A DNA stretch of 64,000 bases, from positions 17,686-81,685 of the forward strand of contig JBHPJW010000002.1 in assembly GCA_042567505.1 (NCBI GenBank). Reading direction: 5' to 3'. This DNA is from Fibrobacterota bacterium. Its GTDB lineage: Bacteria; Fibrobacterota; Fibrobacteria; UBA11236; JADFYW01. This document shows positions 52,620 through 53,783 of this stretch, one piece after another. The notes below the pieces were generated by a model. The model ran no database searches. It had not been told where the DNA came from and saw nothing but the letters and a program-made list of their open reading frames with translations. A program made the position numbers and the translations under genes. The stretch's first letter is position 1. The number at the start of each line of letters is the position of its first letter.

Positions 52620-53783
52620 TTAGAAGAAACCAACAAACCTCAGGATGACCTGGTCCTGGTTCTCAAATTGAGCCTGGGGAATGAAGCGGTTCATCCGGTA
52701 AAAAAGAGCCAGCTCGGTGAATTGGGTGACAAAAGCCTCCACTCCCACAGTCAGGCGGTCCTGGCCGTCCCTATTCCAGGCTAAGCCGGCCTCATTTCCC
52801 ATAATAGTGGTGTTTCTGTCAAAAAACTCATAGGTGGTTTTGTAATTCAAGCCGTCCATGATATGATAATTGAGTTCCAGAAACCCCGCGAACTGGTCCC
52901 TGTTTTCTTTGGTGATGATGTCACCCTCACCCATAAGAGTGAATTTACCGAAGTTAGTCCCGGCAAAGACTCCCCAACGGTAATCATCTCCCCAGAAATT
53001 AGTTCCTTCCAAACCGGGGTGGTCCTCGGTCCAACGCTGGAATGATCCCCCTACCCTCCACCTGCGGTATACCACTGTAGCCACCGTAGAAAACCTGGCG
53101 TCGGTCAGGTTGGCGATGAGGGAAAAAGGGCCCGGCTCAAATCCAATTTCACCGGCCATGTCCCGGGTAAAATAGGTGTACCCTGTTTTTGCGCGGATAA
53201 AGGCGTCATCATCATACAGGCGCAAACCATAGGGAAGCAGCATGTATCCGATTTTCACATAAGAATTCAGGGGAAACTTCATCATGGTCCAGTATTCACG
53301 CCAGCCGTTCTGCATCATGTCCGCGTCCGCGTAAAACAGGACAAAATCCTGAATCAGGTCCATCTGAAAATAAAGGTCGGCCTCTTTAATATTGGTCTTA
53401 TTATCTCCCAGGACTTTGGGAAGGGTGTCGAGTCCGGTTATGGGATCAGTGGGCTGGTAATCAAGGGAAGTGGCATTATCCACTCTCAAGTTTGCGCCGA
53501 CGGAAAGCATTTCGCTTATCTGTCCGCCAAAAAACGCCGGTTTTTTAGATGGCCGAATGGATTTCATTTTAAGCTTGTAATGACCGTACTGCACTCCGAA
53601 ATCAGTACGCTTCCCCCCGCCTGATGCGTTCACATGGCAAACCACGCACTTGAGCCCGGTGCGCACAGCCATGTAGGGCTCTCCGTACGCTGAAAAACCG
53701 AAAAAAAACAGGACAAAAAGGGACACTAAGGGGAAAGCATTCCTCCATCCCGTGAACATGAGTTTTGTTATCCGGTTATTCAT
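52620..53783 (-). CDS. Mono-haem cytochrome fused to a beta-barrel (Cyc2-like cytochrome-porin)
   Basis: Signal peptide, then [16 protein letters not shown]...GGGKRTDFG; remainder is alternating amphipathic strands ending in Phe (VILRFVGFF). Confidence 0.7.
   Translation of the reverse strand: [387 protein letters not shown]

Follow-up and report, generated by a model that had tools for sequence, protein, structure and literature searches.

A putative fused monohaem cytochrome c-porin from a Fibrobacterota bacterium, apparently a remote relative of Cyc2, encoded in an operon with electron carriers

In the window, the 64,000-nucleotide stretch of Fibrobacterota DNA analysed here (contig JBHPJW010000002.1, positions 17,686 to 81,685), an intact open reading frame encodes a protein of 387 residues that joins a predicted haem module to a predicted outer-membrane barrel. 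The assignment draws on the reading frame, an AlphaFold2 (AF2) model, Foldseek matches and family alignments. The gene and its parts are as follows.

52620-53783, minus strand: fused monohaem cytochrome c-porin, 387 aa
53682-53783, minus strand: signal peptide, aa 1-34, with predicted cleavage between SAYG and EPY
53508-53681, minus strand: haem module, aa 35-92, including the CXXCH at nt 53634-53648
52623-53507, minus strand: 16-strand beta-barrel, aa 93-387, ending RFVGFF (DSSP strands of the AF2 model; Foldseek matches to 16-strand porins)
53166-53237, minus strand: L3-like inward loop between strands 5 and 6, aa 183-206, the best-conserved segment of the barrel

The reading frame begins with an ATG that lies within an 8-nt overlap with the stop of the upstream gene, and an AGGAG is located approximately 13 nt upstream. 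The N-terminus, read from the sequence, has a basic n-region followed by a hydrophobic core and the putative cleavage site. In relatives, the same alignment column carries AxA before EPY. The protein contains exactly one CXXCH (C46-V-V-C49-H50). Cleavage at the predicted site would make the first haem Cys residue 12 and the haem His residue 16 of the mature protein, so an earlier note on this DNA was right to place a single CXXCH about 10 residues past the cleavage site. The P-x-x-A-x-x-x-G-x-x-CxxCH...FG context that it described is also present (P36, A39, G43, F62-G63), and the protein ends in F386-F387. Haem attachment and an outer-membrane location are predicted.

In Pfam and NCBIfam scans no family model matches the porin, and a PDB sequence search returns no match. 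A profile of its own family matches 1,782 clusters at 50% identity, and the representatives listed are the best 150 of these 1,782. The family ranges across Fibrobacterota, KSB1, Calditrichota, Marinimicrobia, Latescibacterota, Gemmatimonadota and a few others. Column frequencies, taken from 231 full-length members, give the mature N-terminus EPY-h-A-h-R-[TS]-G-x-K-CxxCH-V-N-x-T-G-G-G-x-R-T-x-F-G, the L3-like loop LLPYGxRLxDDxAFIR and the C-terminus H-h-F-F. The window copy fits the first two of these and is otherwise a full-length member (E 1e-116 to its closest relatives), but it ends in V-G-F-F. The C-terminal His at position 384 is present in 217 of the 231 members and is Val384 in the window. 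Among 39 genomes of the host order, 27 contain the family (referred to here as AEPY) and none contains the canonical Cyc2 motif. Literature searches, which were incomplete in coverage, found no paper describing it. The suggestion of the earlier note that the protein may be a distinct clade is borne out, and the difference is larger than was implied there: this is a separate, large and unnamed family.

The motif pattern is far beyond chance, since C46, C49 and H50 are present in 231 of 231 members, P36 in 229, G55 in 231 and R59 in 230. An ordinary haem-free porin with an incidental CXXCH is therefore extremely improbable: the motif is invariant across many phyla at a constant mature position, and genes for cytochromes and for cytochrome c maturation lie next to the porin gene.

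Cyc2 proteins are defined by AXPXFAR[Q/K][T/Y] upstream of the CXXCH and by PXL four residues after it (Keffer et al. 2021, PMC8406198). Neither motif is found in the window porin. Instead of the first, the window has G-E-P-Y-M-A-V-R-T and the family consensus is A-E-P-Y-x-A-V-R-T. The P, A and T are matched (in the consensus also the first A), and F-A-R-[QK] is replaced by M-A-V-R. With regard to PXL, there is no conserved Pro after His50 in the 231 members. At 387 aa the window porin is above the Cyc2 length threshold (at least 365 aa), whereas most family members (355-365 aa, mode approximately 360 aa) would be borderline or excluded. A surrogate profile HMM, built from 83 motif-defined Cyc2 proteins from metagenomes in place of the FeGenie HMMs, scores the window porin at approximately 9 bits, at the N-terminus only. 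Conversely, the AEPY family HMM scores canonical Cyc2 proteins at 14-20 bits. By blastp, the best match of the window porin to Cyc2 has an E value of 6e-5 in a database of only 83 sequences (the Cyc2 match threshold is 1e-5). Because of the motifs, the HMM score and the blastp result, the window porin appears to lie outside Cyc2 clusters 1-3 as defined and, judged by its sequence, is very probably not a canonical Cyc2. A merely short member of clusters 1-3 would share its architecture and the mature position of its haem His, and a gapless alignment does match A, P, A and T of the first motif. This reading is nevertheless very unlikely given the absence of FAR[QK] and PXL and the low scores in both directions, and the published Cyc2-like N-termini of KSB1, Gemmatimonadota and Calditrichota MAGs all have FAR[QK] and none has AEPY.

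In hhalign, the haem module matches the profile of the canonical Cyc2 N-domain with 96.3% probability (E 1.8e-9, 32 columns). Control comparisons with other cytochrome c families of the same operon give E values of 1e-4 or worse over 7-20 columns, and reversed profiles give 2e-3 or worse. The barrel-only profile has no significant match to canonical Cyc2 (E 0.012, probability 3.6%), so homology of the barrels has to be argued from the fold. The haem module (approximately 32 residues) is the only part detectably related to Cyc2, and the relationship is remote. The accepted Cyc2 clusters are likewise significantly similar to one another at the N-terminus only (PMC5566968).

The Cyc2 family (A. 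ferrooxidans Cyc2, Mariprofundus Cyc2PV-1 and Leptospirillum Cyt572; PMC8406198) and the AEPY family have in common the N-terminal frame x-P-x-hydrophobic-A-...-G-x-x-CxxCH...FG. The haem His is mature residue 16 in both the window porin and A. ferrooxidans Cyc2 (H16), and the N-terminus YPGFARKYNF of Leptospirillum Cyt572 also fits this position. Both families have a signal peptide, one CXXCH, a 16-strand barrel and a C-terminal aromatic residue, and both have a periplasmic dihaem cytochrome c and a cupredoxin among their gene neighbours. The earlier Cyc2-like reading of the protein therefore stands for its architecture (signal peptide, one N-terminal CXXCH, OprP/OprO-like barrel, C-terminal Phe). 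FAR[Q/K][T/Y] in Cyc2 corresponds to [MIL]A[VI]R[TS] in the AEPY family, and PXL after the haem to VNxTGGGKRT, a three-residue insertion. Cyc2 proteins are 400-570 aa long and thus longer than the AEPY mode. Only the AEPY family has the nearly invariant L3-like loop and the C-terminal His. The taxa also differ: AEPY sequences occur in the FCB group and Gemmatimonadota, Cyc2 mainly in Proteobacteria, Nitrospirota and Chlorobi. In AEPY operons the partner is a bd-like (OR-N) module, in Cyc2 operons an aa3/cbb3 oxidase or ACIII.

In the AF2 model, computed from a 115-sequence alignment (mean pLDDT 87.5, pTM 0.84), the barrel has 16 beta strands, long outer loops and short periplasmic turns. This agrees with the barrel ending in Phe that had been proposed from the sequence. 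The top Foldseek matches in the PDB are 16-strand porins, with OprP (2o4v) at rank 1 and OprO (4rjx, 4rjw) at ranks 4 and 5. Keffer et al. 2021 reported the same two porins as templates for Cyc2 (PMC8406198). These Pseudomonas aeruginosa porins (PDB 2o4v, 4rjw) resemble the window barrel in their 16 strands and inward L3-type loop, and are among its best structural matches (E 1.4e-11, TM approximately 0.5). They differ from it in having no haem module, no link to redox genes, 11-12% sequence identity and other conserved lumen residues. AF2 confidence drops in the haem module (pLDDT 49-82), since the model contains no haem. By analogy, the haem would be positioned at the periplasmic mouth of the barrel.

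Within the L3-like loop, P184 is conserved in 221 of the 231 members, G186 in 228, R188 in 214, D191 in 220, D192 in 187, F195 in 203 and R197 in 216. The model has a short helix at 195-198. The loop may form a constriction or a cation site, and strand alternation in the model suggests that D191, D192 and residue 384, where relatives have His, face the lumen. The charged barrel residues R100, D153, R162, E163, R188, R197 and E212 are invariant (alignment A2).

The genes around the porin gene encode further electron carriers, a membrane module and cytochrome c maturation proteins.

51838-52557, minus strand: cupredoxin with a C-terminal CarboxypepD_reg-like domain, 239 aa (AF2 pLDDT 91.2; Foldseek matches to amicyanin, AcoP and the NirK cupredoxin domain)
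53776-54540, minus strand: lipoprotein cytochrome c with one haem (motif CX3CH in this copy and CXXCH in relatives), its gene translationally coupled to that of the porin
54543-55628, minus strand: periplasmic dihaem class-I cytochrome c, 361 aa (two Pfam Cytochrom_C domains, E 4e-18; weak NCBIfam matches to ccoP and cytochrome 579)
55767-57488, minus strand: 573-aa protein joining a dihaem cytochrome c to an EB_dh/NxrC-like haem b domain (two Pfam Cytochrom_C domains; EB_dh, E 1e-16; NCBIfam DMSO_red_II_gam)
57485-58288, minus strand: monohaem cytochrome c, 267 aa (Pfam Cytochrome_CBB3, E 1.5e-9)
58285-58827, minus strand: 180-aa protein with a weak cytochrome c match (Pfam Cytochrom_C, E 0.008), kept in 7 loci
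58829-60982, minus strand: 717-aa membrane protein of the CydA-like (bd-like, OR-N) type with a cytochrome c551-like domain at its N-terminus (Pfam Cyt_bd_oxida_I, E 3e-13)
61904-64000, plus strand: System II cytochrome c maturation genes, ResB/CcsB at 61904-63085 (Pfam ResB, E 5e-18) and a 671-aa CcsA from 63078 that runs off the window

The ResB and CcsA genes adjoin the porin operon, and the full CcsA reading frame, taken from the genome, matches PF01578 (E 2.7e-25). A scan for sigma-70 promoters and terminators finds nothing beyond a cluster of weak promoter-like sites in the gap at 55628-55767.

Homologues of the window genes were counted across 83 porin loci, by tblastn for the lipoprotein cytochrome. 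In 52 of these loci the porin gene is preceded by a gene for a dihaem cytochrome c homologue, in at least 17 a lipoprotein cytochrome homologue comes directly upstream, and in 27 the cupredoxin is present. The full eight-gene cluster recurs in Fibrobacteria, Gemmatimonadota, Proteobacteria and 'Deltaproteobacteria' MAGs. In the lipoprotein cytochrome (alignment A4), the lipobox Cys is Cys29 and C132, C136, H137 and M223-P224 are invariant. Its relatives match Cytochrome_CBB3 and PSCyt1. The ligands of the cupredoxin family are H129, C172, H175 and M178. In the window copy the axial Met is replaced by Glu (E178). In the bd-like protein, residues 89-161 match c551/c552. Two conserved His residues are missing from the window copy, where AQLH has become AQLF and PxNxHR has become YLNVNS. 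They are retained in 12 of 12 homologues from related clusters and in three relatives with the region recovered.

This linkage bears on whether the haem is part of an electron conduit at all. The protein could be a solute-specific porin in which the haem senses or gates, so that permeability responds to redox state or to a gas, or in which it forms a peroxidase-like site at the periplasmic face. The barrel interior, with its invariant charged residues, is unusually conserved for a porin, and because position 384 of the window copy lacks the one further His that the family conserves, a coordination position of the haem might be left free. This reading is unlikely, since the gene is tightly and widely linked with a membrane redox module and three or four soluble carriers of electrons, and since its haem module resembles the one in Cyc2, which transfers electrons.

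The rus operon of A. ferrooxidans encodes the chain Cyc2-Cyc1-rusticyanin, to which the cupredoxin and dihaem cytochrome c of the window are parallel. The inner part of the operon resembles the TO_1-type clusters of Nitrospirota, which encode a bd-like terminal oxidase of the OR-N family and are also present in 'Ca. Manganitrophus'. In the latter, their products are the proposed recipients of electrons entering via Cyc2 (bioRxiv 10.1101/2021.01.16.426971; PMC9040806). Both have a CydA-like protein with no quinol site, a periplasmic NxrC/EB_dh-type haem b protein and c cytochromes. Unlike the TO_1 clusters, the window has its oxidase-like module and porin-cytochrome in one operon, and its CydA-like protein has an N-terminal c551-like domain and has lost the two conserved His residues. 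MtrCAB and MtoAB/PioAB likewise move electrons across the outer membrane by pairing a barrel in that membrane with c-type haem. These systems consist of separate polypeptides with 26-strand barrels and membrane-spanning decahaem wires, whereas the window porin has one haem fused to a 16-strand barrel. With this single haem, the substrate must therefore come to the haem.

The porin-cytochrome is most likely the outer-membrane port of a trans-envelope electron chain with a Cyc2-like mechanism. On balance, we consider it probable that it carries a monohaem c module of approximately 58 residues on the periplasmic end of a 16-strand porin, represents a remote sister family of Cyc2 and feeds an electron uptake chain. 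A small redox-active solute would enter the barrel from outside; Fe2+ is the likeliest, and Mn2+ or another cation is possible. The conserved acidic L3-like loop (D191, D192) would guide the solute, and one electron would pass from it to the haem at the periplasmic mouth. The electron would then move on to carriers encoded alongside, namely the lipoprotein cytochrome c, the dihaem cytochrome c and the cupredoxin, and finally to the inner membrane, where the NxrC-like b/c cytochrome and the bd-like (OR-N-type) module would receive it. Analogy and gene context make an Fe(II)-oxidase function plausible, and the substrate and the direction of flow are proposed on the same grounds.

The direction is the point at which the host genome enters. 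A Wood-Ljungdahl cluster adjoins the porin operon. In the host assembly, which is 66% complete, no haem-copper oxidase (COX1) is found and the only oxidase is a canonical quinol bd oxidase. This profile is not that of a classical aerobic iron oxidiser. The loss of the two His residues from the bd-like protein argues against O2 reduction at the end of the window chain, and Cyc2-type chains have been discussed as reversible. These observations speak for the same protein and partners passing respiratory or fermentative electrons outward, instead of taking electrons up, onto an acceptor that is extracellular or diffuses through the pore, such as chelated Fe(III), humics or O2/H2O2. We regard outward flow as doubtful: the partners, class-I c cytochromes and a cupredoxin, belong to carrier types that usually have high potentials suited to taking electrons from Fe(II), the bd-like His residues are retained in most other lineages, and the cluster encodes no multihaem wire able to reach a solid acceptor. 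A functional link between the conduit and the Wood-Ljungdahl genes was considered and rejected. Their adjacency is treated as coincidental because it is the only connection and the setting is not seen in the related clusters recovered from other phyla. Val384, the cupredoxin E178 and the bd-like His losses mean that the chain may be retuned or partly decayed in this genome.

The Cyc2-type fused cytochrome-porin design is already known; the large, unnamed sister family is new. Cyc2 is currently the main genetic marker for iron-oxidising bacteria in genomes and metagenomes. Surveys for Cyc2 probably miss the AEPY family, because its members fail the motif and profile criteria despite having the same design and a related haem module. 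The family occurs in phyla that are abundant in soils, sediments, groundwater and the ocean yet little understood, and is genetically tied to electron carriers and to a bd-like oxidase family with unassigned electron donors. More tentatively, the AEPY porins may be a fourth, unrecognised branch of a Cyc2 superfamily. With their partners they could make up a complete and self-contained route for electrons that starts at a donor outside the cell and ends at a terminal oxidase. This route would be widely distributed among heterotrophic phyla of the FCB group and in Gemmatimonadota, and metal (Fe(II)/Mn(II)) oxidation or electron uptake could be far broader than surveys with the FeGenie Cyc2 HMM see. 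If electrons do cross the outer membrane via AEPY porins, the list of potential metal oxidisers would be longer, and the OR-N bd-like oxidases would gain a concrete upstream partner, with a function testable by heterologous expression of a small operon. Since the Cyc2-like build is found in a large sister family, electron exchange with the environment may be open to many bacteria outside the known metal oxidisers.

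The porin-cytochrome gene (window 52620-53783, minus strand) is an intact ORF of 387 aa. Its ATG, preceded by an AGGAG about 13 nt upstream, overlaps the stop codon of the preceding gene by 8 nt. Read from the sequence, the predicted signal peptide consists of a basic n-region and a hydrophobic core, with cleavage expected at SAYG/EPY, where relatives carry AxA/EPY. The earlier note placed a single CXXCH after the signal peptide. The protein contains exactly one, C46-VV-C49-H50; given the predicted cleavage, its His is the 16th residue of the mature chain. The described P-x-x-A-x-x-x-G-x-x-CxxCH...FG context is also present (P36, A39 and G43 before the motif, F62-G63 after it), and the terminal Phe is found in a C-terminal FF. 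Among full-length relatives, C46, C49, H50 and G55 are conserved in 231 of 231, R59 in 230 and P36 in 229. Judged by this conservation, the context of the CXXCH is not due to chance.

No Pfam or NCBIfam model matches the target, and a PDB sequence search with it returned no match. Its close relatives number in the hundreds, are all annotated as hypothetical and are mostly 355-365 aa long. A profile of this family, here called AEPY, matches 1,782 of 1.84 billion cluster representatives at E <=1e-3 and 291 at E <=1e-30. Among species-representative genomes, the family is present in the Fibrobacteria, KSB1, Calditrichota, Marinimicrobia/Neomarinimicrobiota, Fidelibacterota, Latescibacterota and Gemmatimonadota, and in a few MAGs of the Proteobacteria, Bdellovibrionota and Planctomycetota. 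Within the Fibrobacterota, 28 of 296 species genomes carry it, all within the window's order, where it occurs in 27 of 39 genomes. The host genome, a 66%-complete MAG, has one copy. One 'Deltaproteobacteria' MAG encodes a 583-aa family protein (L078, 7917-9668) with a long N-terminal extension ahead of the barrel; P0130, also of 583 aa, has two matched stretches. No paper describing the family was found in the literature searched, which is an incomplete collection.

The beta-barrel proposed earlier is borne out by the AlphaFold2 model, built with a 115-sequence family alignment, which has 16 beta strands (mean pLDDT 87.5, pTM 0.84). At the end that bears the N-terminus the strands are joined by short turns, and on the opposite side by long, variable loops. 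Strands 5 and 6 are connected by a loop (aa 183-206) with a short helix, located where classical porins have their inward-folding L3 loop. When the model is compared with the PDB using Foldseek, OprP (2o4v) ranks first and OprO (4rjx, 4rjw) fourth and fifth; the matches below these are general 16-strand porins. OprO and OprP are also the reported templates for Cyc2 (PMC8406198; bioRxiv 10.1101/2021.03.22.436458). The haem module (aa 35-92) has low model confidence, as expected because the cofactor is absent from the model.

Cyc2 is defined by a signal peptide, one CXXCH, a 16-strand porin and a length of at least 365 aa, with AXPXFAR[Q/K][T/Y] before the CXXCH and PXL after it (Keffer et al., PMC8406198). 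The frame of the target's haem region (32 residues, not shown) aligns with Cyc2 without gaps. The haem ligand of A. ferrooxidans Cyc2 is H16 (bioRxiv 10.1101/2021.03.22.436458), the same mature position as in the target, and the target's Pro at mature residue 2 fits the sequenced N-terminus of Leptospirillum Cyt572, YPGFARKYNF. Both FAR[QK] and PXL are absent from the target, and we read it as lying outside Cyc2 clusters 1-3 as defined. A search of all 39 genomes in the window's order found no canonical motif. Published 'Cyc2-like' proteins of KSB1, Gemmatimonadota and Calditrichota MAGs all contain FAR[QK], and none contains AEPY.

The canonical Cyc2-type genes for profile comparison came from metagenomes searched with a degenerate DNA pattern that encodes P-x-F-A-R-[QK]-[TY]-x3-C-x-x-C-H. 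The resulting 83 full-length proteins (390-560 aa) have N-termini resembling published ones of Sideroxydans, Chlorobium and others. Over the full length in global mode, the family matches canonical Cyc2 with 98.4% probability (E 3.5e-14). The haem module alone, without signal peptide, matches with 96.3% (E 1.8e-9, 32 columns); this alignment has a three-residue insertion at the PXL position of Cyc2, after which FG is lined up. The barrel alone is not significant in the same comparison (E 0.012, 3.6%). Reversed profiles gave E 2e-3 or worse, and the family's haem module against cytochrome c families of the same operon gave E 1e-4 or worse over 7-20 columns. Scores of single sequences against profiles are low both ways. 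With the Cyc2 profile, the window protein scores about 9 bits and the family 10-30 bits; in the reverse direction, canonical Cyc2 scores 14-20 bits against the family profile. A database-scale HMM or BLAST search would fail to connect the two. Between the accepted Cyc2 clusters, too, significant similarity is confined to the N-terminus (PMC5566968), so the relation of the family to Cyc2 is of the same kind and more remote. We read the family as a sister of Cyc2 that shares its architecture and has a homologous haem module. The earlier note's interpretation is thus supported in part: the Cyc2-like architecture and the distinct clade stand, but the target is not a Cyc2 in the canonical sense.

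The target belongs to a cluster of eight intact ORFs, all on the minus strand, that runs from 60982 to 51838. In transcription order:

58829-60982, minus strand: c551-like domain fused to a CydA-like (bd-like) membrane protein, 717 aa
Gene 2, minus strand: protein of 180 aa, weak match to cytochrome c
Gene 3, minus strand: cytochrome c, 267 aa
Gene 4, minus strand: fusion of a dihaem c cytochrome with an EB_dh/NxrC-like haem b domain, 573 aa
Gene 5, minus strand: dihaem cytochrome c, 361 aa
53776-54540, minus strand: lipoprotein monohaem cytochrome c, 254 aa
52620-53783, minus strand: porin-cytochrome (target)
51838-52557, minus strand: cupredoxin-containing protein, 239 aa

In the family of the 254-aa lipoprotein, a lipobox Cys is present and C132, C136, H137 and M223-P224 are invariant. 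The haem site is CX3CH (CDVGCH) in the window copy and CXXCH in relatives, which match Cytochrome_CBB3 and PSCyt1. The window copy also contains an insert rich in Cys (about 75 residues, aa 40-115), which it shares with L012 and L013 and which is missing from most relatives. The 239-aa protein (AlphaFold2 pLDDT 91.2) has three parts, with a central cupredoxin and a C-terminal CarboxypepD_reg-like domain. Its family ligands are H129, C172, H175 and M178 in an amicyanin-like CDxHxWM loop, and Foldseek matches it to amicyanin, AcoP, plastocyanin and the NirK cupredoxin domain. The N-terminal part of the bd-like protein comprises a membrane anchor and a c551/c552-like haem domain (aa 89-161).

Among 83 loci bearing a family member, a dihaem cytochrome homologue adjoins the porin gene in 52, a cupredoxin occurs in 27 and a bd-like gene in 18. 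The complete cluster is also found at such loci in Fibrobacteria, Gemmatimonadota, Proteobacteria and 'Deltaproteobacteria' MAGs. Divergent beside the operon (window 61904-64000, plus strand; L209, 64-2079) are ResB/CcsB and CcsA (671 aa, with a large N-terminal extension), a dedicated System II cytochrome c maturation pair. A 138-nt gap (55628-55767) separates the inner (bd-like/NxrC-like) from the outer (dihaem c/porin/cupredoxin) half of the cluster. Several weak promoter-like sites overlap one another in the minus strand of this gap, and the outer half may have its own promoter there. In a KSB1 MAG, a 925-aa protein about 6 kb downstream of a family member (L002/L003, 17232-20009) has faint multihaem matches (MtrC/MtrF-like, cytochrome c7/c3) and a Por secretion tail; it may be an extracellular multihaem cytochrome exported by a type IX system.

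The outer module (porin-cytochrome, dihaem c, cupredoxin) parallels Cyc2-Cyc1-rusticyanin of the A. ferrooxidans rus operon. The inner module resembles TO_1-type bd-like (OR-N) complexes of Nitrospirota, which in 'Ca. Manganitrophus' are proposed acceptors of electrons entering through Cyc2 (bioRxiv 10.1101/2021.01.16.426971; PMC9040806). By analogy with Cyc2 and from the gene context, the best-supported reading of the porin-cytochrome is a putative outer-membrane electron port of Cyc2 type. One haem is too short to span the membrane, so the redox partner would have to diffuse into the 16-strand pore, where it would meet the haem at the periplasmic mouth. The L3-like loop, LLPYGxRLxDDxAFIR, is the most conserved barrel segment (D191 in 220 of 231, D192 in 187 of 231), and its acidity would suit a cationic substrate such as Fe2+. 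The haem would hand electrons on to three co-encoded carriers (lipoprotein cytochrome, dihaem cytochrome, cupredoxin), from which they would reach the inner-membrane module. The high-potential type of the carriers and the intact His ligands of most bd-like homologues lead us to favour uptake towards O2; outward flow through the same chain is less likely, and the host's biology is compatible with it.

Conserved ligand-type positions are altered in three proteins of the window's genome. Besides the His of the CXXCH, the porin family has one conserved His, His384, found in 217 of 231 members; it lies at the periplasmic rim, four residues from the C-terminus. It is a candidate distal haem ligand and is Val in the target (codon 52629-52631, minus strand), so haem coordination of the window copy may differ. 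In the cupredoxin, Glu replaces the axial Met both in the window copy and in L013, the relative closest to it. Two conserved His are missing from the bd-like protein (58829-60982, minus strand), whose AQLF and YLNVNS correspond to AQLH and PxNxHR in 12 of 12 homologues from related clusters. AQLH is also found in all three searched relatives with the region recovered, two from the same family and one from the same order. A canonical CydA is encoded elsewhere in the host genome, and no COX1 was detected in this 66%-complete MAG. The electron chain may have been retuned, or may be partly degenerate, in the window's lineage. What is new here is a sister family of Cyc2, as yet unnamed, that has a conserved operon of its own.
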